Origin: Abditibacterium sp.
Lineage (GTDB): Bacteria; Armatimonadota; Abditibacteriia; Abditibacteriales; Abditibacteriaceae
Assembly: GCA_965246885.1 (NCBI GenBank)
Contig: OZ251992.1
Span: 448,001 to 512,000, forward strand
Reading direction: 5' to 3'
DNA length: 64,000 bases
Shown here in pieces: positions 12,783-42,238 of the stretch (its first letter is position 1; each line of letters begins with the position of its first letter). The notes beneath the pieces were generated by a model that saw only the letters and a list, made by a program, of their open reading frames with translations, was not told the DNA's origin and ran no database searches. A program made the translations under genes and the position numbers.

Positions 12783-12971
12783 GCAAAACGGCTTCCTGAA
12801 AGCCCCGCTCAGGCAAAGGCAACAACGCGCCAATACGTGACTTCGACAGTCACCAGCGTCGCGTTGCCCCCGCGAACGGGCTTCTAAAGCCACCCTGACT
12901 ACGTTTTGATCGCTTCGCCATTGGTTTGCCGCACTGCCACTGCGAGCGTCTTCAAATTTTTCAAAAATCCC

Positions 12972-15608
12972 ATGCAGACTCAAACACGCCGCCCCATTTT
13001 ACGCGGCTTCTTGATCCCGCTTGCGCTGTGCGCGAGTGGGTTGCTGGCGCCGTCGGCTCACGCTCAGTCGACCGCGCCAGTTGCTGGCACTACCATTGGC
13101 AACAAAGCGTCGGCCACCTATACCGACAACGCCAATGTGTCGCGCTCCACGCTGTCGAACACCGTTTCGACAACTGTCACCCAAGTGCCCGCCGTTAACC
13201 TGACCGCTCCCCGCAACATTCGCGGCTATCCCAGCGCTCCGGTCAACTTCTCGCACACCGTCACCAACACCGGCAACGGCCCCGACTCCTTCAACCTCAC
13301 GGCAGTGTATGGCACCGGCACCAACGTGTCGCCGCTTTCCATCTACGCGGACGCTAACGGCGACGGCATCGCCGACAACAACACGCCCATCACGGTTTCC
13401 CCGACGTTGCAACCGGGCCAGTCCTACTCCTTCGTCGTCACGGGCACCATCCCCGGCAGCGCCACTGCTGGCTCGACGGGCACCATCACCGTTGGCACCT
13501 CGTCCGTCACCAACTCCGGCGTTACCGGCTCCAACACCGACACGGTGACGGTCTCGACCAACGCCAACATCGTCTTGCGCAAGTCGGTTTCGCTTTCTTC
13601 CGGCGCGCCCAGCGATACCACGCAATACACCTACACCCTGTCGTATGTGAACAACTCGCAAAAGACGGCTGGCTCGACGGTCATCACCGACACCATCCCG
13701 ACGGGCCTCAAGTACGTTCCCGGTTCGGGCGTTTGGCAGGGCAACGCCTTGACGGACATCTCGACCGATACCGACGCCACCATCACCAACTCGGACGCCA
13801 CCACGTCCACGATCAAGTTCTCCGAAACCGGACAAAACGTGAGCGCCACCATCAGCAGCGTTCCGCCGGGTCAGGGCGTCATCACGTTCAAGTTTACGGC
13901 CCCCGCCGTCACCGCTCCGGGCGTGTACAACAACACGGCGAACATCTCGTATGACGACGGCAGCGGCTCGCCCACAGCCGTTACGGATGTCTCGAACACC
14001 GTTCCCTTTACCGTCTCTTCGAGCGTGGCCTTCACCTTCACCGGGCCGCCCGCCATCCCCAGCGCGCCCCAAGGCAGCACCGTCTCGTTCAACAACACGT
14101 TGACCAACAACGGCACCGGCACGGACACCTTCAACATCACCCTCGTTCCGCCCGGCACCGGCGCGTTCCCCGCAGGCACCACGTTCCAACTGTATAAGTC
14201 CGACGGCGTCACGCCCTTGCTCGACACCAACGGCGACGGCATCCCCGACACCGGCCCCGTTGCCAGCAAAGGCACCTACGTCGTCGTGTTGAAGGCGCTC
14301 TTGCCTTCGGGCGCTACGGGCGGCCCCTTCGAGATGGACAAAGTCGCCACTTCGATCACCGACAAGTCCACGCAAACCGCGCAGGACAAACTGACGGTCA
14401 TCAAAGCCTCTTCGGTGGACTTGACCAACTTGGACAACACCAGCGCCGTCATCCCGGCCACCAGTGGGCCTTTCGTCGCTGGCAGTGGCGCGACCATCAG
14501 CTTGTCCGGCAACCCCGGCTCCACGCAAATCTACCCGTTGCGCGTCATCAACAATGGCCCTGCGGGAACCACCGACTCCTTCGCGCTGAGCGTTTCCACG
14601 CTCGCCCCCGGCGCCACCGGCTTCCCCGGCGCCTTGCCCGCAGGCTACACCGTCGTTTACCGCGACAAGACCACCGGCCAAGTCCTCTCCTCCGTTGACA
14701 ACTTGGCGGGCGGCGGCGGCACCCGCGACGTTCTCGCTTATGTGACCATCCCCACCACTGCGGTTGGCGGCACTTCGGTTGACCTCTACTTCAAGTCGGC
14801 CTCGCCCACGAGCGGCACCAACGACACCGTCTTCGACCGCGCCACCGTTAATGTTATCCGCAGCATCTCGGTCAAAGACAACAACTCCGGCCAAGTCGCT
14901 CCCGGCGGCTCCGTCACCTACTTGCACACCATCACCAACACCGGCGATGTTCCCGAAACCATCATCAGCGTGACCAAAGCGGGCGACGCCAACGGCTTCT
15001 CGTCGGCCCTCTATCCCGACACCAACGGCAACGGCGTCCTCGACCCGGCAGAGCAAGCCACCCCGCTCACCACAGTTGGCCCGCTCGCTCCCGGTCAATC
15101 GGTCGGCGTGTTCGTGAAAGTCTTCGGCCCCGTTTCGGCCACGCAGGTCGGCGGCGTCAACACCACCACGCTCACCGGCACGCTGTCGGCCAACTCGACC
15201 GACACCACCTACACGGCAGGCACCATCAACGGTAGCTCGACCGACTCCACCACGCTCGTCTTTGGCGACGTGAAACTGGACAAGCAGCAATCGCTCACCG
15301 GCGTCGCTGGCTCGTTCGTTCGCTCGAACCTCGCTGTTGGCCCCGGCGGAACGATCTACTACCAGATCACCGTCACCAACACCGGCACCGCGCCCGTGAC
15401 CAGCGTTGTCGTCAACGACGCCACCCCCGCTTACACGACGGCTTTGGCCGCGCCCGCCCCGTCCTACACCGACAAAACCGGCGCAGCAGTCACCACCGGC
15501 ATCACCGCGCCCGCCGCTAACGCCGCCGGTTCCTACACCTTTCCGGTCGGCACCCTCGCGCCAGGCGCGTCCTCGACCATCGTCTTCGCCGTGAAAGTCC
15601 AAGGCTAA
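12972..15608 (+). CDS. Secreted DUF11/Ig-repeat protein, putative fibre subunit or adhesin (878 aa)
   Basis: Signal peptide (SAHA|Q); Thr/Ser/Gly-rich; repeated TNTG and LAPG motifs; three DxNG[DN]G Ca-loop-like motifs; no C-terminal anchor. Confidence 0.85.
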   Translation: MQTQTRRPILRGFLIPLALCASGLLAPSAHAQSTAPVAGTTIGNKASATYTDNANVSRSTLSNTVSTTVTQVPAVNLTAPRNIRGYPSAPVNFSHTVTNTGNGPDSFNLTAVYGTGTNVSPLSIYADANGDGIADNNTPITVSPTLQPGQSYSFVVTGTIPGSATAGSTGTITVGTSSVTNSGVTGSNTDTVTVSTNANIVLRKSVSLSSGAPSDTTQYTYTLSYVNNSQKTAGSTVITDTIPTGLKYVPGSGVWQGNALTDISTDTDATITNSDATTSTIKFSETGQNVSATISSVPPGQGVITFKFTAPAVTAPGVYNNTANISYDDGSGSPTAVTDVSNTVPFTVSSSVAFTFTGPPAIPSAPQGSTVSFNNTLTNNGTGTDTFNITLVPPGTGAFPAGTTFQLYKSDGVTPLLDTNGDGIPDTGPVASKGTYVVVLKALLPSGATGGPFEMDKVATSITDKSTQTAQDKLTVIKASSVDLTNLDNTSAVIPATSGPFVAGSGATISLSGNPGSTQIYPLRVINNGPAGTTDSFALSVSTLAPGATGFPGALPAGYTVVYRDKTTGQVLSSVDNLAGGGGTRDVLAYVTIPTTAVGGTSVDLYFKSASPTSGTNDTVFDRATVNVIRSISVKDNNSGQVAPGGSVTYLHTITNTGDVPETIISVTKAGDANGFSSALYPDTNGNGVLDPAEQATPLTTVGPLAPGQSVGVFVKVFGPVSATQVGGVNTTTLTGTLSANSTDTTYTAGTINGSSTDSTTLVFGDVKLDKQQSLTGVAGSFVRSNLAVGPGGTIYYQITVTNTGTAPVTSVVVNDATPAYTTALAAPAPSYTDKTGAAVTTGITAPAANAAGSYTFPVGTLAPGASSTIVFAVKVQG

Positions 15609-15638
15609 GACCAACCGGGCGCCCAGCGCGCTCAAACC

Positions 15639-15670
15639 AAAACCCCCGGCTCGAAAGAGCCGGGGGTTTT
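15639..15670. terminator. Bidirectional intrinsic terminator
   Basis: aaaacccccggctc-gaaa-gagccgggggtttt between convergent genes. Confidence 0.9.
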
Positions 15671-15688
15671 GTTCGTTTTGGGCAGCCT

Positions 15689-17272
15689 TTAAAACTGCTC
15701 GCGCGCTTCCACGCCCAGCACGCGCAATGCCGCCGTCGCGACGTTGCCCGCCGCGCGCAGCAATTCGAGCCGCCGCGTTGTGGGCGCGAGCGAGGGCGCG
15801 TTGTGGCGCGACAATTCGCGCGCCGCCCGCGCCAATTGGCCCACGAAGTCGGCGACTTTGTGCGGCGCGCGCTCCGATGCGGCGCTCTCCAGACAGTCTG
15901 GCCACAGCGCGACCAAGCGCGCCAGTTCCCGCTCGCCCGTGCTCCACTCGCCGCTTTCTGACGCGGCGGGCGCGCGGCCTTCGAGGGCGCGGCGCATCGT
16001 CGCCAAGCGCGACGGGAGCAATTGTGCGGCGTAAGCGGGGTTCGATTCGTCGTCGCGGGCGGCGATTTCCAAGTCCACAACGGCAGTCTTGCTCGCGGGC
16101 TTGGCGCAAAAGAACCAGCGCAGCGTGTCGGCGCCGACCTCTTCGATTTCCTCGTCCAACACGAGCGGTCCGCCGCCCAAGCCCAGCCGAATCGGGGCGC
16201 CGTCGCGCTCCAAAGCGGCGTCTTCGACGGTGACGAACTCGACCTTGCCCTCGTCCAACCCCGCCGCGCGCAATGCCGCTTTGGTGCGGGCGATGTAGGG
16301 CTTGTGGCCCGCGCTCCACACGTTGAGGATGGCGTCAAAGCCGCGCTCGAACTTCCAAGCGTGATAGGCGACATCGCCCGCGAAGTAGGTGGCGCGGCCC
16401 GTCGCGCGCCGGAGCACGCGGTCGGCGTCGTCGCCAAACTCGGTCGTGCGGAGCCACAACGCCCCGTCGCGCTCGTAGGTGGTGCCGCGCGCGGCGAGCA
16501 TTTCCAAGGCGCGGTCAAGGTGCCCGTCGCGCGCGAGATCGGACTCGCGCACCCACGAATCGAAGCGCGTCCCGAAGCGTTCTAAGGAGGACTTTTGCAG
16601 TTCAACGGCGCGCTCCAAGGCGAACTGCGTGGCGGCTTCCAGCCGTTCTTCGACGGGAACAGCGAGCCACTTCGCGCCGTCGCGCCGCGCCCATTCGCCG
16701 CCGAGGGTGCGCGCAAAAGCGCCCGGAGCGGGCGCGTTTTGGCCAAAAGCGTTCTGATAGGCGCCCCAAACTTCCTCGCCTAAGGCGCGCAGTTTGGGGC
16801 TACTGGTTTGGTCGTTGAGGTAGAACTCGCGCGAAACGCGCGCCCCGGCGCCTTCGAGCAAGCGGCACAAAGATTCGCCCCACGCCGCGTGCCGTCCGGC
16901 GCCCAAAGGAAGCGGGCCGGTCGGGTCGCTGGACACGTATTCGACCAAAATGCGTTGCCCCGCGAGCGCGTTCGAGGCGCCGTAGTGCGCGCCCTCGCGC
17001 GTGGCGCGTTCGAGTTCGGAGAGAAAGTGTTCGTCGCTCATGTGAAATTGCAGCCTGCCAGCCTCGAAAACAACGCGGCCCGCCCAATGGGGGCCGAGCC
17101 GTTGGATGGCAGTTTGCCCGATTTCGTCAGAGGAACGCCCGGTCGTTTGAGCGCTATGGAGAGGGAAATTGGAAGAGAACTCCCCCCACCGTGCGTCGGG
17201 GGCGACGGAAACAACGGCATCGGGCGCGTCCAAGACGCGGGCGAACAGGGCGCGCAGGCGGGAGCGGGTCAT
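15689..17272 (-). CDS. Arginine--tRNA ligase-like protein with degenerate HIGH and KMSKS motifs
   Basis: ArgRS architecture (VEYVS.DPTGPL, FGDDADRVL, TYFAGDVAYH, DALR-like C-terminus) but HIGH is PLGA and KMSKR is RLGLG. Confidence 0.8.
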   Translation of the reverse strand: MTRSRLRALFARVLDAPDAVVSVAPDARWGEFSSNFPLHSAQTTGRSSDEIGQTAIQRLGPHWAGRVVFEAGRLQFHMSDEHFLSELERATREGAHYGASNALAGQRILVEYVSSDPTGPLPLGAGRHAAWGESLCRLLEGAGARVSREFYLNDQTSSPKLRALGEEVWGAYQNAFGQNAPAPGAFARTLGGEWARRDGAKWLAVPVEERLEAATQFALERAVELQKSSLERFGTRFDSWVRESDLARDGHLDRALEMLAARGTTYERDGALWLRTTEFGDDADRVLRRATGRATYFAGDVAYHAWKFERGFDAILNVWSAGHKPYIARTKAALRAAGLDEGKVEFVTVEDAALERDGAPIRLGLGGGPLVLDEEIEEVGADTLRWFFCAKPASKTAVVDLEIAARDDESNPAYAAQLLPSRLATMRRALEGRAPAASESGEWSTGERELARLVALWPDCLESAASERAPHKVADFVGQLARAARELSRHNAPSLAPTTRRLELLRAAGNVATAALRVLGVEAREQF

Positions 17273-17279
17273 GAGAGAC

Positions 17280-17384
17280 AGCGAATAAATTCGCAGCCAG
17301 CGAGGTCGTCGGCCTTCGCCGACGGCGTTTCAGTTACTACGTCGGCGAAGGCCGACGACCTCGCTGGCTGCGAATTTATTCGCT
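17280..17384. repeat. REPIN-like palindrome (perfect 45-bp arms, 15-nt loop)
   Basis: Arms 17280-17324 and 17340-17384; contain gcgaataaattcgc and gtcggccttcgccgac sub-hairpins. Confidence 0.88.
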
Positions 17385-17390
17385 CGCCAT

Positions 17391-18668
17391 TCACCGGCCC
17401 CAAACCGTCGCAGCAAATTGAAACAGCGCCGTGAACGCCGCGCCGCCCGCAAGCGAACCCGCGAACGACCACATCATGCCCGCGTTCAGCAGTCGCAGCG
17501 GCGAGCGCGAGGTCATAAACGGCGTGTTCTGATAGTGCGCCATCAGTTGCTGCGCCGCGCGGATGCCCGATTCCAACTGCTTCTTCGAGGCGGGGCGCGT
17601 TGTGAACAGCACTTGCAGCACGTCGCCAAACGAGCGCCACACGAAGAAGGTGAAGATGAGTAGCCCCAGAATCCAGTCGGGCGTGAGCGCCGAAAGGTGC
17701 GTGATGCCCACGTAAATGAGGCCCGCAATGGCCATCAGGTTCGTGCCGCAACGCGGGTGGGCGCGCGGCATCTTGGCCACGTTTTCCGGCGTGAGCGGCA
17801 GGCCGCGTTCCAAAGCGTGGACGGTCTGATGCTCCGCCGCATGCACGCCCGCCAAGGGCGTGAGGCGAAACATCAGCAGAAAGAACAGGGCATGCAACCC
17901 CGCGAAGAAGGTGTTGAGCAGGTTGGCCGAATCGTTTTGCAAACCCAAGCGCCCCGACAGCACGAGCATGCCGAACTCCGGGTTAATGGCGCGCGCCACG
18001 AAATAAACCGCCAACTGCGCGATATAAAAGAACGCGGCGATGGTGAGACCCGACAGAAACAGCCCGAAAGCGGATACCCCACCCGTCAAAACGCCGTCGG
18101 TCAGCCACACGCCGAGGGGCGTCGCCATGCCACCGACGACGGGCGGGCGGACATAGCCGGTCAGCGCCGACAAAACGTCGGCCCGCGACAGCATGCCGAG
18201 GTATCTGTTCGCCTCGTCTAAGACGGGCAGCGACCCCAATCCGGCGCGGTCGAACGTCAAGAGGGCGTTGGGCAGGGAAAACTGCGCGGGCACGAACGGC
18301 ACTTCGACGCGCATCACGTCGCGCGCTTTGAGTTCGCGCAGCGTATCGAGGGGCGACGGCGGCGCGCTGGCGAGCGCCTCGCCGTCTTGCTCGACCAAAG
18401 CGTTAGCGCCGTGCCCATTGAGCGAGGCCACCTCGCGCGTCGGAGCGAAGACGCGCGCCGAAGCCGTCGCTAAGTCGTCTTGCGTGATGATTCCCACCAA
18501 CCGCGCGCTTCGCTCGGAAAACTGCGACCTATCGGGCGTGACCCGATCTAACACCGCGACGACCCCGCCATTCGATTCACGTAAATTCTCCGCGACTAAT
18601 CCCAAAGCGGTATCCGCTTGCACCACCGGCGCGCGCCGCGCCAACTGGACGGCCAAAGTAAAAGGCAT
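17391..18668 (-). CDS. CBS-domain + DUF1385 membrane protein
   Basis: ARDVM...LPVLDE...LGMLSRADV (CBS); HAAEHQTVHALE and HPRCGTN (DUF1385); several TM segments. Confidence 0.8.
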   Translation of the reverse strand: MPFTLAVQLARRAPVVQADTALGLVAENLRESNGGVVAVLDRVTPDRSQFSERSARLVGIITQDDLATASARVFAPTREVASLNGHGANALVEQDGEALASAPPSPLDTLRELKARDVMRVEVPFVPAQFSLPNALLTFDRAGLGSLPVLDEANRYLGMLSRADVLSALTGYVRPPVVGGMATPLGVWLTDGVLTGGVSAFGLFLSGLTIAAFFYIAQLAVYFVARAINPEFGMLVLSGRLGLQNDSANLLNTFFAGLHALFFLLMFRLTPLAGVHAAEHQTVHALERGLPLTPENVAKMPRAHPRCGTNLMAIAGLIYVGITHLSALTPDWILGLLIFTFFVWRSFGDVLQVLFTTRPASKKQLESGIRAAQQLMAHYQNTPFMTSRSPLRLLNAGMMWSFAGSLAGGAAFTALFQFAATVWGR

Positions 18669-18731
18669 CCAATGTCCAACGAACCGAGCGCGCGGAAGTC
18701 GCACCCGAAACGATAAAAATGCCCGTGCCTC

Positions 18732-20024
18732 TTAACCGATGCGTTCGACCCCGCCCAGATACGGCCTGAGCGCGTCGGGAATCGAAACGCTCCCGTCCGC
18801 GTTCTGGTAGTTCTCCAGAATTGCCGCGAAAGTGCGGCCAACGGCCAAGCCGCTCCCGTTGAGCGTGTGCACGAACTCCGGCTTGCCCGGCTTGCCGTTC
18901 TCGTCGAGCGGGCGGAAGCGGATGTTGGAGCGGCGGGCTTGGAAGGACTCGAAGTTGGAGCAGGAACTAATCTCGCGGTAGGTGTTCTGCGACGGGAACC
19001 ACACTTCCGGGTCGTAGGACTTGGTCGCTTTGAAGCCCAAGTCGCCCGTCGCGTGTTCCATCGTGCGGAAAGGAAGACCGAGCTTTTCGAGGATGGACTC
19101 GGCGTGCGCGCGCAGTTGTTCGAGGGCTTCGTAGGAGTTGTCGGGCGCCACGAACCAGACCAACTCCACTTTGTCGAACTGGTGGACGCGAATCATGCCG
19201 CGCGTGTCGCGTCCGGCGCTGCCCGCTTCGGAGCGGAAGCAAGGCGAATAAGCGGCGTAGCGGACGGGCAATTGCGCGGCGTCGAACACTTCATCGCGGT
19301 GGAAGTCGGTGACGGGCACTTCGGCGGTCGGGATGAGCCACAAGTCTTCCCCGTTGATTTTGTAAGCGTCCTCGGCGAACTTGGGCAAAATCCCGGCGCC
19401 CTCCATCGCGCTCGAACGCACCAACACCGGCGGCAACAACTCCTCGTAGCCGTTCTCGCCGGTCTGCACATCGAGCATGAACGAAATTAGCGCCCTTTCC
19501 AAGCGGGCGCCCATGCCGCGCAGCACGTAAAAGCGCGCGCCGGAGGTTTTCGTGGCGCGCTCGAAGTCCACGATGCCGAGTTTTTCTCCCAGTTCGTAGT
19601 GCGGCAACGGCTCGAAATCGAACGCGCGCGGCGTTCCAAAACGGCGCACTTCGACGTTCTGTTCCTCGCCCTCGCCGACCGGGGCGGAGGGGTGATGGAT
19701 GTTGGGAATCCCCAGTAGCGCGGTTTGCAACTGCTCATCTAACTCGCGGGAGTTGCCCTCCAAGGCGCCGATTTGCTCGCCGACTTCGCGGCCCTCCTTA
19801 ACTAAGTCGTCGGCAGGCTCACCTGCTTTCTTGGCGCGCCCAACTTGGGCAGCGATCTCGTTGCGCCGCCGCTTGAGTTCCTCAATTTCGGCAGTCGCCC
19901 GCCTACGCGACTCATCGAGAGACATAAATCCGTCCACCAGCGCATCCGCGCCCTTGATGTTTTTATTGCGCAAGTGCGCCTTGACCAAATCCGGGTTGGC
20001 GCGCAGAAATCGAAGTTCCAGCAT
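18732..20024 (-). CDS. serS: Serine--tRNA ligase
   Basis: [41 protein letters not shown] and [11 protein letters not shown] motifs. Confidence 0.97.
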
Positions 20025-20057
20025 GATTGATGGGCGCCAGTGTAGGAAAATAGGGAG

Positions 20058-20990
20058 GTGCTTCCCTTCGACCCCCGAAAACCGCTCTTTGGATTCAAAG
20101 CCCGCGCGCCCCACGCTCGGCGGCGGATTCATTTGTTCGCCGACAAAACGGGCGTGTTCTTTCGCCCGCGAACGGCGCCCGCCGACTGGTGGGGTGGCTT
20201 TGCCGACGAGCGAATAACTCGACGGGCGATAAGACGTAAATGGTGGGCACGGGTGGTTGCGGGCCTATCGCAACCCATCGCCAAGAGTCATTTTTACCGC
20301 GTTTTTGATGTGTCCGCCCCCGATGCGTCGGGGCGGACATGGCGCATTTGGTGGCGCCCCGATGAATCGTGGTTGGAGCCGCTCGACCAAAAACACGGAC
20401 AACTGGGCGCGTTCCTCAGGCCGCGCCCGTCGCAGTTTCATTTGTGGAGGACGCCAACAGCCACGCTCAAGGAGCATTTTCTGAAGGAGTGGGCCGACGC
20501 CGGGAGCGACGCGCGCGACGCGATGGGCTGGTGCGATTTGAACATGGAAGAGCGGCAATCCCGCGCGCTACGCTGGGCCGAGGGCGACTTAGCGACGCTG
20601 CGGCAACTGCTGGAAGCGGCCATGAAAGCGGCGGTGTGGGATGAGCCACCCAAATCCACGCGGTCGCTTTCGGCGGTTTGGCTCCACAAACGCGCGATGC
20701 AACTCGACATCACATGGCAATCTTCGCCCGCGTTTCAGACTCTCCTCCCGCCGCTCGTTCCCGTTATCGAAGCGCGCTTTCGCAGCTTCTATGACCTCCC
20801 GGACAAAGCGCGCTTGAATTGGGGTTTTCCTTGGTTCCAAGAGGACGTTCACTGCAATTTCGATGTGTGTCTCCAAGTTGCGGAACCAACGGCCCACGAG
20901 CGCCTCGAAGCCGCGCTTTTCCTGCGCGAGTGGTTGCGCCAAAACGCGCCGGATTTGTTGCCCGACTGGTTTCCGGGTGACGTTGGATAA
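20058..20990 (+). CDS. Hypothetical Trp-rich protein
   Basis: GGGAG directly before a GTG start; 310-aa ORF filling the intergenic space; no recognised domain. Confidence 0.6.
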
Positions 20991-20993
20991 GAG

Positions 20994-21596
20994 CTACTCG
21001 GTGCCTTCGGGTAGGTCGTCGAAGCGGCGGTAGCAGTCGCCCACGCGGAACTGGATGCCGAGAGCCGCGAGTTGCACGCGGGCGTCGCGCGTCAGATGGC
21101 GGGTGAGGCGGGGTTCTTCGTTGGAGTGTTGCGGGCGGCTCCAGTGGTCGAGGCGGATTTTGTCCTGCCATAAGACGAGGTAATCGCACAGCGAAGGGAG
21201 CAAGAAATAGTTCGTCCGCTTGGTCGAGAGGTCAATGTTCTTCGTGGAAGGCGACAGCACTTCCACTAAAACGAGCGGCTCCAACAGGGTGCGCTCGTAT
21301 TCGCGGTCGAAGTCGGCGTCCTCGCAATAGACCACGACATCGGGGTAAGCGTCCATGTCGGCGTCCTCGACCCGCACCAGTTGGTCGCTGATTACAGCAA
21401 AGCAGGAAGTGTCTACTAATGCAGTATCCAGAACTCGCCCAACAGCCATGATAATTCTTGCATGACTGGGACTGCCCCCGGCCATTGCGACGATGTATCC
21501 GTTGAAGAACTCGTGGCGAACCGGTGAGTCGCGTTCGAGCCGATAAAAGTCGGCGCGCGTGTGGACGGGGAACTCGATCTGGCGGGCGGCGCTCAT
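20994..21596 (-). CDS. Uma2 family endonuclease-like protein
   Basis: HEFFNGYIVAMAGGSPSH, YPDVVV and VEVLSPST motifs. Confidence 0.9.
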   Translation of the reverse strand: MSAARQIEFPVHTRADFYRLERDSPVRHEFFNGYIVAMAGGSPSHARIIMAVGRVLDTALVDTSCFAVISDQLVRVEDADMDAYPDVVVYCEDADFDREYERTLLEPLVLVEVLSPSTKNIDLSTKRTNYFLLPSLCDYLVLWQDKIRLDHWSRPQHSNEEPRLTRHLTRDARVQLAALGIQFRVGDCYRRFDDLPEGTE

Positions 21597-21653
21597 AAGC
21601 AACAGTTTAAGCCGCGCCCGCGCATGGCAAAGCGCACCTAAACTCGCGCGTCG

Positions 21654-22202
21654 ATGAGCGAATCGAACCCTTGGACAACGAAAAGCACGCGCCACATTTA
21701 CGAGAATCCTTGGATTTCCGTGCGCGAGGATGCCGTCATCACGCCCGGTGGAAGCGACGGGATTTATGGCGTGGTTTCGATGAAGGGCCGCGCGGTCGGC
21801 GTCGTGCCGCTCCATGACGACGGGACGGTCACGCTCGTCGGCCAATGGCGCTACACGCTGGGCCAATACAGTTGGGAAATCCCCGAAGGCGGCTGCCCGC
21901 CCGACGAAGCGCCCATCGAAGCCGCGCGCCGCGAACTGCGGGAAGAGACCGGCCTGCTCGCGGCAATGCTCCACCCGCTTGGCGGAGAGGTTCACCTGTC
22001 CAATTCCGTCACCGACGAACGCGGGTATCTCTTCGTCGCAACCGGGTTATTGCAAGCCAAGGCCGCGCCCGAAGACACCGAACAAATCGCAACGCGCCGC
22101 CTGCCCCTGTCGGAGGCCGTCGAGATGGTCGTGCGCGGGGAGATTGGGGATAGTTTGAGCGTCATGGCGCTGCTGCTGTTGGAGCGGCGAACCAACGCCT
22201 AA
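21654..22202 (+). CDS. NUDIX hydrolase (ADP-ribose pyrophosphatase-like)
   Basis: WEIPEGG...AARRELREETG Nudix box. Confidence 0.92.
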   Translation: MSESNPWTTKSTRHIYENPWISVREDAVITPGGSDGIYGVVSMKGRAVGVVPLHDDGTVTLVGQWRYTLGQYSWEIPEGGCPPDEAPIEAARRELREETGLLAAMLHPLGGEVHLSNSVTDERGYLFVATGLLQAKAAPEDTEQIATRRLPLSEAVEMVVRGEIGDSLSVMALLLLERRTNA

Positions 22203-22300
22203 AGACGCCGCAAAACAAACGAAGCCGACCTTCGTCGGCTGACGCCGTTGGTTGTAGCCCGCAAAGGCGGGCTTGGTTTGGGTTGCGGCGTCTTTAGGCG
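22196..22300. repeat. REPIN-like palindrome
   Basis: Arms cgcctaaagacgccgcaa / ttgcggcgtctttaggcg with inner hairpins agccgaccttcgtcggct and agcccgcaaaggcgggct. Confidence 0.75.
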
Positions 22301-22306
22301 CTGGCT

Positions 22307-22627
22307 TTATCTGCCCCGAACAAACGTCGGGATGGCCAACACCAGCACAATGGCGGACGGGTCGAGCAGCCAAACCCACAGCGCGTGAATGCGAAGCGGC
22401 GCGAAAACGAGGCAACCGAGCAGGAGCGGCACGCCAAACGAAGCGCCCATAGAACTCCATTTGCCCGAACCCTTGCGGGCTTCAAGGGAATTAAAGCGAA
22501 GAATAAGCCAATTCATCGTCGCCAAGAACGCGCCAAAAAGCCACAACGGACACGCGACAATGAATCCTGCCGCCTCGCGCGTCGTGCAACCCAGCAGGTG
22601 GGCGAGGGCGTGCGTGAGGGCGGTCAC
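22307..22627 (-). CDS. Small hypothetical membrane protein
   Basis: GTG start overlaps the upstream stop; three hydrophobic segments. Confidence 0.5.
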   Translation of the reverse strand: MTALTHALAHLLGCTTREAAGFIVACPLWLFGAFLATMNWLILRFNSLEARKGSGKWSSMGASFGVPLLLGCLVFAPLRIHALWVWLLDPSAIVLVLAIPTFVRGR

Positions 22628-23136
22628 TCCGCTTTCTCCGCTTTTTCTTCCTGCGCGCGCAACACCGACGCGATGAGGCGTTCCATCGTGGCGCGCATTT
22701 CGGGGTCTTCGATTTGTCCGGCGAGTTCGCGGCCCCGGCGCGCGGCGGCGTCGTTGGTGGGGACGTGCAGAGCGACTTCGCGCTTGTTCGGCTGAGCGGG
22801 AAAAGTGGGGTCTTCCCAGTTGTCCTCGACGCTGGCTTTGCGCTTGCCGGGGGGGAGCGTGACGCGCACGCGTAGCTTCTGCACGATGGGCTTGCGCAAG
22901 CGCCCGTTGAGGCGCGCGATGATGCGGCCTTCGAGAAAGTGAACCTCGTGCGACCACTGCGGACTGCGCGCGCGGATGTAGAGAATTCCGCCCGTGAAGC
23001 GTTCGGCGAGCGTGTTGGCGGCCACCAAAGGCCCCGCGACTTCCTTCCACAATTCCACCGCCATTTGTTCCAATACCTTGCCGCGCCAGCCGCGCTCGTC
23101 CAAGACGCTGTTGACAATATTGCTCACGTTGTCCAT
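22624..23136 (-). CDS. DUF721 / DciA family protein
   Basis: W..VAG...A.NT...GILYI...SPQWSHE pattern; located downstream of recF. Confidence 0.85.
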   Translation of the reverse strand: MDNVSNIVNSVLDERGWRGKVLEQMAVELWKEVAGPLVAANTLAERFTGGILYIRARSPQWSHEVHFLEGRIIARLNGRLRKPIVQKLRVRVTLPPGKRKASVEDNWEDPTFPAQPNKREVALHVPTNDAAARRGRELAGQIEDPEMRATMERLIASVLRAQEEKAEKAE

Positions 23137-23160
23137 TGAATCACCTCGGTTTCACTCGAT

Positions 23161-23169
23161 TTATCCACA
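23161..23169 (+). promoter_or_regulatory. Consensus DnaA box
   Basis: TTATCCACA between recF and the DUF721 gene. Confidence 0.65.
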
Positions 23170-23194
23170 GGTGGGCATAAAGCTATGGAAAACT

Positions 23195-24337
23195 CTACTC
23201 CACCTTCCCGCCCTCCACTCGAAAGTGCGCGGCGACTTCCGCTAAGAATGTCGCATCGGTCGCGGTTACGATGCTCTGCGAAAACGACTTCGCTTCGCCT
23301 AACAATAACCCTCTGCGCGTCGCGTCCAACTCCGATAACGCATCATCTAACAGCAGTATCGGATCATCTCCTAAGGTATCCCGCACCCAATGCGCAAGCG
23401 CGATTTTAAGCGACAAAACCGCCAACCGCCCCTGCCCTTGCGAGCCGTAGCGCCGTAAATCCACGCCGCCCAGTTTGAAGGAGAACTCGTCGCGGTGCGG
23501 CCCGCTTTGTGTGGAAGCGCGGCGAAAGTCGTCGCGGTGGTCGTCCTCCAGAGAACTCAAAAATAAGCGCGAGAACTCTTCCTCGCTCCCGCGCCGCCAA
23601 GCCGACAGTCCCGGCGCATATTCGATTTCAAACGGCCCGTCCAACCCTGATAAGCGCGCGTGCGTTTCGGCGAGGAGAGGGGCGACTTCGACAAAGAACT
23701 GGTTGCGCGCCGCCAACACCCGCGCGCCGTAGCTCACCAAAGCGCGGTTGAGTTCGCCCAACGAGCCGTATTTCTCCTCGGTTTCGCGGCTTTTGGGGTT
23801 GTCGAGCGACGCCTTGATGTAGGCGTTGCGCTGCTGCAAAGCGCGCCGATAGCGGGCGATGTCCGAGAAGTAGGCGGGCCAGATTTTGCCCAGTTCGAGG
23901 TTCAAAAAGCGCCGCCGCTCTTCGGGTTCGCCCGACACGAGCGCCAAGTCGTGCGGGAAAAACGACACCACCTGCAACTGCCCCAGCCACCCCGCCACCG
24001 CCGACTGCGGCACGCCGCCCACCTTCATTTCGCGCTCGACCTTTTGCCCCTCGACGCGCCAACTGTATTCCAAGCGCCGCACATCCGCCGCCCGGTTCGG
24101 CGGCGGCGGCAACTCCACTTCCGCGCCCAACCGCGCCGCGCGCTCGTTCCACCGGATCAATTCCCGGTCGCGCTCCACGAGCGGCGATTTCGTCGTCGCC
24201 AACACGCACACCGCCTCCAACAAGTTCGTCTTCCCCTGCCCGTTATCCCCCGTAAACGCCACCAACCCGGCGGGCAACTGTAGCTCCTGCGCGGCGTAGT
24301 TGCGGAAATTGGCGAGGCGGAGGGAGCGGACGACCAT
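23195..24337 (-). CDS. recF: DNA replication/repair protein RecF
   Basis: NFRNY, GDNGQGKTNLLEA, GPHRDE, GSQGQ and LLLDDALSELD motifs. Confidence 0.95.
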   Translation of the reverse strand: MVVRSLRLANFRNYAAQELQLPAGLVAFTGDNGQGKTNLLEAVCVLATTKSPLVERDRELIRWNERAARLGAEVELPPPPNRAADVRRLEYSWRVEGQKVEREMKVGGVPQSAVAGWLGQLQVVSFFPHDLALVSGEPEERRRFLNLELGKIWPAYFSDIARYRRALQQRNAYIKASLDNPKSRETEEKYGSLGELNRALVSYGARVLAARNQFFVEVAPLLAETHARLSGLDGPFEIEYAPGLSAWRRGSEEEFSRLFLSSLEDDHRDDFRRASTQSGPHRDEFSFKLGGVDLRRYGSQGQGRLAVLSLKIALAHWVRDTLGDDPILLLDDALSELDATRRGLLLGEAKSFSQSIVTATDATFLAEVAAHFRVEGGKVE

Positions 24338-24377
24338 GTGAGGGAACGCGGAAAAAGAACGAACAGCGAAGTGGTGC

Positions 24378-24740
24378 TTAACGATGCGTCTTCGCTTTGT
24401 TGATGGACGCAACAACGATGGCGACCAACTCGTTGGCTTCGGCGCGCAGGTCAAAAGCAGTTTCAGGCTGAATCAGACCGCGCTTTTCGAGAAGGTCAAG
24501 CCAGAACTCCGACTCGTCCGCCTCTTCCACCGTGCCCATTTTGGAAATAAAATCGGCGTTCGATTTAGCGCGTTTCGCGGCTCGCGTATTGGCACCAACA
24601 GACGTGGCACAACGAAGCAACTGTTTCCCCAACACATCCGCCGTCCGGGTGCGTGGCAACTGCTCGACAACCTCAATGATATCCAACGCAAACAATTTAG
24701 TGCGGTCTCGCAAGTCAAAGGGCTTCTCTTCGCGGTTCAT
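24378..24740 (-). CDS. Four-helix bundle protein (23S rRNA IVS-protein family)
   Basis: DLRDRTK.FA, KQLLRCATSVGAN, ADFISK and EEADES.FWL motifs. Confidence 0.9.
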   Translation of the reverse strand: MNREEKPFDLRDRTKLFALDIIEVVEQLPRTRTADVLGKQLLRCATSVGANTRAAKRAKSNADFISKMGTVEEADESEFWLDLLEKRGLIQPETAFDLRAEANELVAIVVASINKAKTHR

Positions 24741-24782
24741 AATTTCCTTTTCCGCGTTCCGGTTTCTGACTTCCGCGTTGGG

Positions 24783-25877
24783 CTACGCTTGCATCGGCAT
24801 GACGATGTAAATGAACCCCTCGCCCGCTCGCAGGATGCCGGGGTTGAGGGCGCCGTTGAGTTCGAGGGTCAGTTGGTCGTCGGGGATGAGGCCCAACACT
24901 TCCATGAGGTATTTGGCGTTGAAGGCGATTTGCAATTCGGAGCCGTCCATCGCAATCGGGATTTCCTCGTAGGTTTGGCCCGCTTCGTTCGATTCGGCGT
25001 TCATCGAAAGCGTGGCGTTGTTGAACTTGCACACCATTTTCTGGTTGGCCGAGCGCGACACGATGTCCACGCGGCGAACGGCTCCCAGCCATTCTTCACG
25101 CTCGAAGGAGACTTTGCGCTCGGTCGCTTTGGGGATGACTTTCTCGTAATTGGGGAATTGGCCGTCCAACACGCGCGAAACGAGCGTCGCCGACTCCGAC
25201 GAGAACTGCACCTGACTCGAACCGAAGCGGATCGTGACCATGTCCTCGGCGCCGCGCCCCAACACGCGCTCCAATTCGATGAGCGGCTTGGCCGGAACGA
25301 TGGCCGAAACGGGAGTCGCAACAGCTTCGCTGAGAAGTGTTTGCTTCCACGCCAAGCGGTGCGTATCGGTCGCCACAAGCGTCAAGGTGTCGCCGCGCGC
25401 CTCGAACAGGACGCCCATCAGAATCGAGCGCGACTCTTCTTTGCTGGCCGCGAACGCGGTCATGCGAATCATTTCCTTGAGCGTCGCGGCGGACAGCGTT
25501 ATCTCGGTGCCCTGCGTCACTTCCGGCACGACCGGGAAATCTTCGGCGGGCGCGCTCATAATCGTGAACCGCGAATGACCAGAGCGCACCACGACCTTCC
25601 CATCGCCGCCTTCAAGCGTCACGGGGGCATCGGGCAGCTTGGAAACGTAGTCGCTCAGGACGGAAGCGGGCAGCGCGACCTCGCCGTTCTCGGACACCGT
25701 CGCGGGAAGGGCGCACCGGACGAAAGTATCGAGGTCGGTGGCCGACAGCTTGATGCGGTCGTCGGCGGTCTGGAGCAAGACGTGCGTCAAAATCGGCAGG
25801 GTATTGCGCGACGACACGGCGCGACCGGCGACGCCGAGGGCTTGGGCGAGATACGAGCGTTCACAGGTAACTTTCAT
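24783..25877 (-). CDS. dnaN: DNA polymerase III beta sliding clamp
   Basis: TLPIL, ATDL, ATDTHRLA, SRVLDGQFPNY and IVMPMQ motifs. Confidence 0.97.
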   Translation of the reverse strand: MKVTCERSYLAQALGVAGRAVSSRNTLPILTHVLLQTADDRIKLSATDLDTFVRCALPATVSENGEVALPASVLSDYVSKLPDAPVTLEGGDGKVVVRSGHSRFTIMSAPAEDFPVVPEVTQGTEITLSAATLKEMIRMTAFAASKEESRSILMGVLFEARGDTLTLVATDTHRLAWKQTLLSEAVATPVSAIVPAKPLIELERVLGRGAEDMVTIRFGSSQVQFSSESATLVSRVLDGQFPNYEKVIPKATERKVSFEREEWLGAVRRVDIVSRSANQKMVCKFNNATLSMNAESNEAGQTYEEIPIAMDGSELQIAFNAKYLMEVLGLIPDDQLTLELNGALNPGILRAGEGFIYIVMPMQA

Positions 25878-25916
25878 GGCGACGATATGGGTAGATTTTA
25901 CCCCGATGGAAAAGTC

Positions 25917-26010
25917 GGGGGATAACTCAGGTATAACTCGGCCCAATTGGGTAAAACCGGGTCAAATTAGGGATAACTCTGGGGATAAGCGGTAATTGTA
26001 GGGATAAGTC
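25917..26010 (-). promoter_or_regulatory. Array of DnaA-box-like 9-mers upstream of dnaN
   Basis: Minus strand TTATCCCCC, TTATACCTG, TTATCCCTA, TTATCCCCA and TTATCCCTA. Confidence 0.65.
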
Positions 26011-42115: not shown

Positions 42116-42238
42116 GACCCGCAAGCGACTGAAGTCGCAGCCATCGGGAATGTCGGCCTTCGCCGACGGCCACCGCGTCAACGAAGGTTGACGATTTCAC
42201 TGGCTGCGACTTCAGTCGCTTGCGGGTCTTAGCTCGCC
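42106..42238. repeat. REPIN-like palindrome (38-bp arms)
   Basis: Arms 42106-42143 and 42201-42238 contain gcgactgaagtcgc; inner gtcggccttcgccgac is identical to the 17280 element. Confidence 0.85.

Follow-up and report, generated by a model that had tools for sequence, protein, structure and literature searches.

A native-type arginyl-tRNA synthetase of Abditibacteriaceae, under selection and probably no longer charging tRNA

The native-type arginyl-tRNA synthetase (ArgRS) gene of an Abditibacterium genome, found in a 64,000-nucleotide stretch of DNA (hereafter the window, meaning the whole of that stretch), encodes an ArgRS-derived protein that is found family-wide, is under selection and most likely has ceased to charge tRNA. 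Two types of argS recur throughout: the native type, to which the window gene belongs (hereafter A), and the E. coli type (hereafter B). Sequence comparison makes it very probable that A is both non-charging and under selection in Abditibacteriaceae. The fuller mechanism, in which the window protein would be a non-charging, arginyl-binding regulator, is given a probability of about 0.5.

The window gene and its locus

The ORF at 15689-17272 (minus strand) has no internal stop over 527 aa and its product has a complete fold, as the first-pass annotation of this DNA had claimed in describing an intact frame with full ArgRS layout. The readings made there of PLGA, RLGLG, WSAGH, YAAQLLPSR and a terminal Phe are also each in place. 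The features of the gene are:

15689..17272, minus strand: degenerate native-type (C. jejuni-like) ArgRS, 527 aa, with all five ArgRS domains
16973..17272, minus strand: N-terminal Add1 domain (aa 1-100), from alignment
16925..16942, minus strand: E111-x-V-S114-x-D116 segment, with the equivalents of E. coli D118 and N123 at 111 and 116
16898..16909, minus strand: PLGA at the HIGH position, from sequence
16544..16546, minus strand: E243, equivalent of yeast Glu294, from profile alignment
16352..16408, minus strand: R289, then Y296, D300 and K307, the remaining residues of the guanidinium pocket (E. coli Y313, D317, R324)
16295..16318, minus strand: W-S-A-G-H323-x-x-Y326, with WSAGH itself at 16304-16318
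16175..16189, minus strand: RLGLG at the KMSKS-loop position, from sequence
16007..16033, minus strand: YAAQLLPSR in place of YYVQYAHAR, from sequence
15692-15694, minus strand: terminal Phe, from sequence

Pfam assigns tRNA-synt_1d and DALR_1 to the window protein, and the AlphaFold2 model (72 homologues; pLDDT 94.3, pTM 0.92) has the ArgRS fold and five-domain layout. The first 16 fold matches listed for the model are ArgRS throughout, matches in the ESM Atlas are to ArgRS clusters only, and the closest PDB sequence is that of C. jejuni ArgRS (3FNR). Against TIGR00456 the protein scores 231.5 bits, which is below the family cut-off of 261.65, and three of its orthologues score 209-234. Databases label such orthologues, among them WP_157947755.1 of the cultured A. 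utsteinense, as arginine--tRNA ligase, and this label is probably wrong. A sequencing artefact as the cause of the motif losses was ruled out, since two public runs, which come from a single study and possibly from the source sample, gave contigs that agree with the window letter for letter over 15300-20300, with no indels.

The surrounding elements of the window are:

17391..18668, minus strand: CBS-DUF1385 membrane protein gene, upstream of the argS-like gene
18732..20024, minus strand: serS, by homology
18732-25946, minus strand: dnaN-recF-dciA-serS-CBS/DUF1385-argS-like run, conserved in most family loci
17280..17384, no strand assigned: palindromic repeat, about 105 bp long, its perfect arms 45 nt each, between the CBS-DUF1385 and argS-like genes
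42121-42223, no strand assigned: second copy of the palindromic element
15638..15671, no strand assigned: 15-bp hairpin flanked on either side by T-rich sequence, a predicted terminator

That serS and CBS-DUF1385 form a run with the argS-like gene, another point of the first-pass annotation, is borne out: both are on the same strand and the argS-like gene follows them, with a NUDIX gene and other ORFs interrupting the dnaN-to-argS-like run at this locus. CBS-DUF1385 lies directly upstream of A in 28 of the 39 loci examined (16/19 family loci and 7/13 sole-copy loci), and its stop codon overlaps the argS-like start in G010 and G012. Because sole-copy A shares this neighbour, the window gene is, on the evidence of gene order, the native Armatimonadota argS at its ancestral site. 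It had been called a paralogue, which is right in so far as a second argS exists, and wrong in that the window copy is the ancestral gene and not the duplicate.

Could A then act as a scaffold or as a cofactor that binds tRNA, its partner being for instance SerRS or the co-transcribed CBS-DUF1385 protein, with a pocket kept for structure only? Apart from the adjacency and the two stop/start overlaps, serS is near A in 15/19 family loci, the C-terminal domain of family A carries new fixed residues, and an archaeal ArgRS-SerRS complex is known (PMC10817482, in part). Such a role is nonetheless unlikely, given that the anticodon residues are changed, that Add1 is the least conserved domain of the family copies, that the CBS-DUF1385 link is broken in 3/19 family loci, and that CBS-DUF1385 is kept where A was not found (14/16 f24 and 4/4 f32 genomes). 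The last observation also weakens the idea of an obligate partnership between the two proteins. The CBS-DUF1385 protein is widespread in Armatimonadota and has invariant H-A-x-E-H-Q and MPRxHPRCGxN motifs, whose sequence suggests a metal site; its single-chain model matches solved folds in the CBS part only. A shorter DUF1385 gene that lacks the CBS part directly precedes an E. coli-type argS at L132 (G055:C39) and in G126 and G206, an arrangement that suggests replacement of argS in place.

The palindromic element has 55 related loci in the genome and is absent from this site in G010 and G012. The hairpin is a probable terminator shared with the convergent gene, although terminator-like structures overall (12, against 8.8 +/- 3.2 in shuffles) are not above chance; no sigma-70-like promoter was found in 15400-20400. 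For expression, no RNA dataset was listed as containing the sequence. The gene converging on the argS-like gene at the hairpin (12906-15608, plus strand) encodes a 900-aa secreted-looking protein with DUF11/DUF7507/DUF7619 repeats. Between serS and dciA lies a 310-aa ORF (20058-20990, plus strand) with no Pfam match, a homologue of which is at the same place in G010 only.

The second argS, its distribution and selection on the native copy

The source genome, 92.7% complete in 2 contigs, encodes a further ArgRS of 588 aa (contig C1, about 814438-816204). A search for a second, canonical argS had been proposed as a check on the window gene, and this is such a gene, so that the first-pass annotation's refuting case of a sole argS does not apply: it has intact motifs (HVGH, YATTD, KTRDG), a terminal Ile and a TIGR00456 score of 489.9 bits, and is nearest to E. 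coli ArgRS. The four tRNA-Arg genes of the genome are ordinary-looking and have A20, an identity element of tRNA-Arg (PMC9976931, in part), and genes for LysRS and AspRS are present. ARAGORN also calls one tRNA-SeC and two tRNA-Stop(tta) at G000:C1:351206-351281, 1435707-1435791 and 3354297-3354378, possibly falsely.

Among 61 genomes searched, 27 belong to the family Abditibacteriaceae (by homologue names) and 34 lie outside it. Both A and B are present in 27/27 family genomes. A is one full open frame in 25 of these; the exceptions are G018, where it meets a contig end, and G023, an indel-rich assembly in which A is frameshifted together with serS and CBS-DUF1385. In G007, G018 and G024 B is divided between contigs, and its frameshift in G025 is attributed to assembly errors since neighbouring genes are frameshifted too. 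The 34 other genomes comprise 23 with A alone, 8 with A and B, and 3 with only another argS type, one of which (G046) has a contig that stops just past the upstream gene. The patchy spread of B and its two separate clades in the tree lead us to infer that it was acquired by horizontal transfer. In the B proteins of G001 and G007 (L040, L046) the HIGH motif continues as HVGHIP where HVGHIR is usual.

Selection across relatives had likewise been named as a check, with neutral decay as a refuting outcome, and neutral decay is not what was found. By pooled Nei-Gojobori estimates over non-overlapping pairs, dN/dS is 0.18 for family A (8 pairs) and 0.15 for sole-copy A (6 pairs), values that are rough because synonymous sites are GC-biased and partly saturated. 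By domain, family A ranges from 0.11 to 0.29 with the maximum in Add1, and the C-terminal domain stands at 0.17. Between genera, family copies share about 46% identity. Over the family genomes, tree distances for A correlate with those for B (r 0.90 from 300 non-independent pairs), the divergence of A being 1.58 times that of B. To judge from these substitution patterns, degenerate A is under purifying selection in Abditibacteriaceae. A redundant gene in slow neutral decay would fit the long stem branch, the divergence of about 1.6 times that of B, the relaxed copies of other lineages (dN/dS of degenerate A there 0.50, 2 pairs) and the lineages that have no A. For the family this explanation is extremely improbable, being contradicted by the dN/dS of 0.18, the full frame in 25/27 genomes and 33 columns invariant among 95 sequences; it may hold for some of the other lineages.

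How often A degenerated is answered differently by the trees, whose backbone is weak. The whole-protein IQ-TREE groups the family with G029 (support 100), apart from the f5/f8/f15 copies, and FastTree places most degenerate copies together. Outside the family, 25 two-argS genomes were compared, of which 8 belonged to the first set and 17 were chosen out of a survey of 251 genomes for having two argS matches or belonging to families f8/f15; the choice was not random, and G231 was excluded because its gene is split. Their A copies range from intact (G185, G220, G225, G237) to strongly eroded, the erosion affecting Add1, the KMSKS loop and the anticodon domain, and E111, Y296, D300 and K307 are kept wherever covered. 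Position 116 is Asp in 9/25 and still Asn in 16/25. As far as these alignments go, erosion in other two-argS Armatimonadota often strikes this same copy and follows the same lines. In the 16 f24 and 4 f32 genomes searched, A was not found.

Changed and retained residues

The 27 family copies were compared with 23 sole-copy A orthologues of Armatimonadota, with the best 120 of 457 database matches, and with 150 representatives (123 anticodon-intact, 22 anticodon-lost, 5 partial). The first-pass annotation took the loss of both class I motifs as a sign of inactivity. For the KMSKS loop the loss does separate the two groups, an (S/G)KR or STR pair being found in 23/23 sole copies and 0/27 family copies, and for HIGH it does not. 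The HIGH position varies across family copies and sole-copy orthologues alike: HxGH occurs in only 4/23 sole copies, the others having TVGS, SVVN, LVVQ and similar, and of the 123 anticodon-intact representatives only 76-81 have any one of the two His and the Gly. The idea that a missing HIGH proves inactivity was rejected, as 19/23 sole-copy orthologues are likewise without HxGH. Sole-copy, presumably working ArgRS at L029, L073, L075, L080 and L086-L089 read TVGS, NVVN, LVVQ, SVVN or TIGS. Many ArgRS are without KMSK as well (PMC3956977, in part), and with HIGH variable in working orthologues, motif loss alone does not prove a protein inactive. Loss of the terminal Met, also offered as a sign, cannot stand alone: the intact second ArgRS of the genome ends in Ile, and one degenerate copy (G020) has the Met. 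Loss of Gly320 was discarded on the same grounds, the second ArgRS having Asp or Gly at that position.

The most invariant change is one that the first-pass annotation had missed, Asn116 to Asp in the SANP motif. Asn occupies this position in 23/23 sole copies and 122/123 anticodon-intact representatives, and Asp or Glu in 27/27 family copies; the best 120 of 457 homologues have Asp in 106, Glu in 12 and a gap in 2 (118/118 Asp/Glu). In the anticodon domain Y415A, Y418L and H420P are fixed in 26/26 family copies covering the region, whereas Y415, Y418, H420 and the terminal Met are found in 23/23 sole copies. In the yeast enzyme, Tyr491 and Met607 have anticodon roles. The changes cluster in three modules and were never seen in the 23 sole copies. 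Taken from these alignments, Asn116 to Asp/Glu, loss of the basic pair of the KMSKS loop and the anticodon-domain changes are diagnostic of degenerate A.

The arginine side-chain site is a different matter. In E. coli ArgRS it consists of D118, Y313, D317 and R324, and D118A and D317A abolish arginine binding (PMC3956977, in part). By profile alignment these residues correspond to E111, Y296, D300 and K307 of the window protein, and this guanidinium pocket is kept in all family copies. Wherever covered in the best 120 of 457 homologues, E111, Y296, D300, K/R307, H323, E243 and R289 are kept in 118-120/120, E243 in 120/120. H323, at the yeast Gln375 position, and Y326 are invariant, and the Gly and Asp before H323 are relaxed. 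Ins2 and Arg127 are kept. In the alignment, E243 and R289 fall opposite yeast Glu294 and Lys340, which hold the tRNA 3' end. The arginine main-chain ligands of the E. coli enzyme are A121, N123, H132 and Q341 (PMC3956977, in part); of the equivalent positions in the window protein, S114 and H323 are kept and D116 and A125 are changed, the match of H323 to Gln341 being made via yeast Gln375, as direct alignment to E. coli is off by one residue. With the N123 and H132 equivalents changed, binding of free arginine may be weaker.

Recognition of A20 is by the Tyr/Phe-Asn/Gln motif of Add1 (PMC3956977, in part). The corresponding pocket of the window protein reads GRLQF, Asn75 is retained in 22/27 family copies, and Add1 has the lowest conservation of the domains. 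Net charge by region of A shows no clear shift. The retained non-aminoacylating role that had been proposed fits the selection observed, and its tRNA-binding option is less favoured: with anticodon residues changed and the arginine side-chain pocket kept, the sequences favour arginyl binding over plain tRNA binding.

It might still be argued that A charges tRNA, perhaps at a low level, in stress conditions, or using a different amino acid or tRNA. The fold is complete, sole copies can do without HIGH, the pocket is retained together with Arg127, dN/dS comes near that of working copies, and the database name is arginine--tRNA ligase. Residual charging is nevertheless quite unlikely, because the changes occur together in three modules and never in the 23 sole copies, every family genome has an intact-type B (the G025 frameshift pointing to assembly errors), the four tRNA-Arg are ordinary with A20, and LysRS and AspRS genes are present. 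The kept pocket also allows A to be an enzyme that uses Arg-tRNA-Arg in the manner of cyclodipeptide synthases (CDPS), such as an arginyl transferase or deacylase with Asp116 as a new general base next to the ester. AlbC offers a parallel, as this enzyme retains a class I amino acid pocket, has neither HIGH nor KMSKS, and takes charged tRNA as its substrate (PMC3105412, in part); Asp/Glu116 is invariant, Ins2, E243 and R289 are kept, and no ATE/Bpt-type transferase was found in the source genome. This reading is rather unlikely in view of the 39 loci, which have no acceptor, biosynthetic cluster or lipid-modifying neighbour, the occurrence of both Asp and Glu at 116 (and of Asn in 16/25 other two-copy genomes), and the C-terminal domain, which A keeps and CDPS are without.

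A putative arginine-responsive role and known systems

If A does not charge tRNA, what would it be kept for? In the preferred reading, that of an arginyl-binding regulator, B would have taken over charging of tRNA-Arg from native A, and A would then have lost arginine activation and anticodon reading; the substitutions are observed, and inactivity is what they suggest. A would be retained because it still binds an arginyl group in its invariant side-chain pocket. Asp/Glu116 at the former carboxylate site should suit a carboxyl-blocked arginine at least as well as free arginine, the candidate ligand being the Arg-tRNA 3' end. As HisZ does for histidine, A would report arginine or tRNA-Arg charging status to a putative partner, by way of a C-terminal domain that is both remodelled and conserved. 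A sensor or regulator is favoured by the housekeeping context, by the genome making arginine and by the absence of detectable ArgR (PF01316) from 61 of 61 Armatimonadota genomes (control 9/14). Some observations count against it. The pocket residues may be kept for folding, and profile searches favour proteins with a conserved catalytic core; the f24 and f32 lineages manage without detected A, and no arginine genes adjoin A in the 39 loci examined. At 116, Asn to Asp takes a single transition and may be no more than the change that is tolerated.

Arginine biosynthesis genes of the source genome include ArgJ, ArgG and an AA-kinase and aminotransferase pair, read as argB-argD. Hexameric NAGK is arginine-sensing, and the putative ArgB, which has an N-terminal extension, may itself sense arginine. 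Loss of ArgR as a family-specific cause is unsupported: ArgR was found in none of the 61 genomes, sole-copy genomes included, and its absence does not single out Abditibacteriaceae. In a phylum without detected ArgR (0/61), A would be a candidate for arginine sensing. More tentatively, and with some doubt, native ArgRS of Armatimonadota might have a long-standing second job at the pocket that is exposed whenever a foreign argS takes over charging; the enzyme would then lose its ATP and anticodon sites and time and again exchange the same Asn for Asp, and in Abditibacteriaceae A would have turned into a full-length protein dedicated to reading or using Arg-tRNA. As an arginine sensor or arginyl transferase descended from a synthetase, it would be of a type that the searches made did not find.

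Some features of A are those of well-studied systems. It resembles ArgRS of the C. jejuni/Bacillota type (3FNR; TIGR00456) in fold (TM 0.76/0.89), domain order and guanidinium pocket, and sole-copy ArgRS of the same type sits at the same locus in other Armatimonadota. Unlike these enzymes, family A falls below the cut-off, has exchanged Asn for Asp, has lost the KMSKS pair and has YYVQYAH replaced, and it is always accompanied by a second argS. AlbC and other CDPS share with A the class I Rossmann fold, the kept amino acid pocket and the absence of HIGH and KMSKS, whereas they are demonstrated enzymes without the C-terminal domain and A has all ArgRS domains in a housekeeping context (PMC3105412, in part). 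The window protein has no Pfam match to the CDPS family and does match DALR_1. CDPS genes lie in biosynthetic clusters. NrtL (NF045898) is another ArgS-related anticodon-binding protein with its own family name, but its match to A is weak and in the C-terminal part (a 327-position model against 527 aa; 52 bits against a cut-off of 340), and A, unlike NrtL, keeps a full catalytic domain together with an altered anticodon site.

Tiarin clusters also bring two ArgRS types into one genome, one of them E. coli-like, although in the producers both ArgRS charge and the second copy is inhibitor-resistant (bioRxiv 10.64898/2025.12.02.691738, in part). In the family studied here it is the native copy that has become degenerate, and A was seen with no such cluster next to it. 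A further candidate role for A is that of a decoy that soaks up arginine-mimic inhibitors, with B gained as the resistant enzyme: the trifolitoxin warhead begins with a carboxyl-blocked arginine, the compound inhibits Rhizobium ArgRS and spares E. coli ArgRS, and excess target titrates it about fourfold (bioRxiv 10.64898/2025.12.02.691738, in part). Inhibitors of this sort could account for the repeated gain of E. coli-type argS. A decoy is very unlikely all the same, as it would add little value once a resistant enzyme is present and leaves selection on the C-terminal domain (dN/dS 0.17) unexplained; the reading supposes, besides, that the trifolitoxin-sensitive Rhizobium ArgRS is of the same type as native A. 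Full-text searches, in which subscription papers are thinly covered, found no literature on degenerate ArgRS in Abditibacteriaceae or Armatimonadota.

The stages of this change can be traced across genomes, from a sole intact copy through an intact copy beside a newcomer and an eroding copy to a fixed new form, and the series offers a natural experiment in which a bacterial synthetase's moonlighting function is taken apart step by step. A is testable experimentally through the orthologue of cultured A. utsteinense. The closest functional model is HisZ, a HisRS paralogue without aminoacylation (PMC5388404, in part). Like HisZ, A is synthetase-derived, appears no longer to charge tRNA and coexists with an intact synthetase in the same genome; HisZ has the class II fold, acts on histidine with HisG as its partner and is ancient, whereas A is class I, full length and derived from the native housekeeping gene. 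The fold of the window protein is class I and not that of class II HisRS, so HisZ is an analogy only. In HisZ the amino acid site lives on as a regulatory site. A itself belongs to none of HisZ, the CDPS, NrtL and the tiarin-producer ArgRS, and our best guess is that it works in a way similar to HisZ. Synthetase-derived proteins with new jobs are already known, and A would add to them one that stems from a displaced housekeeping gene and has kept its full length.
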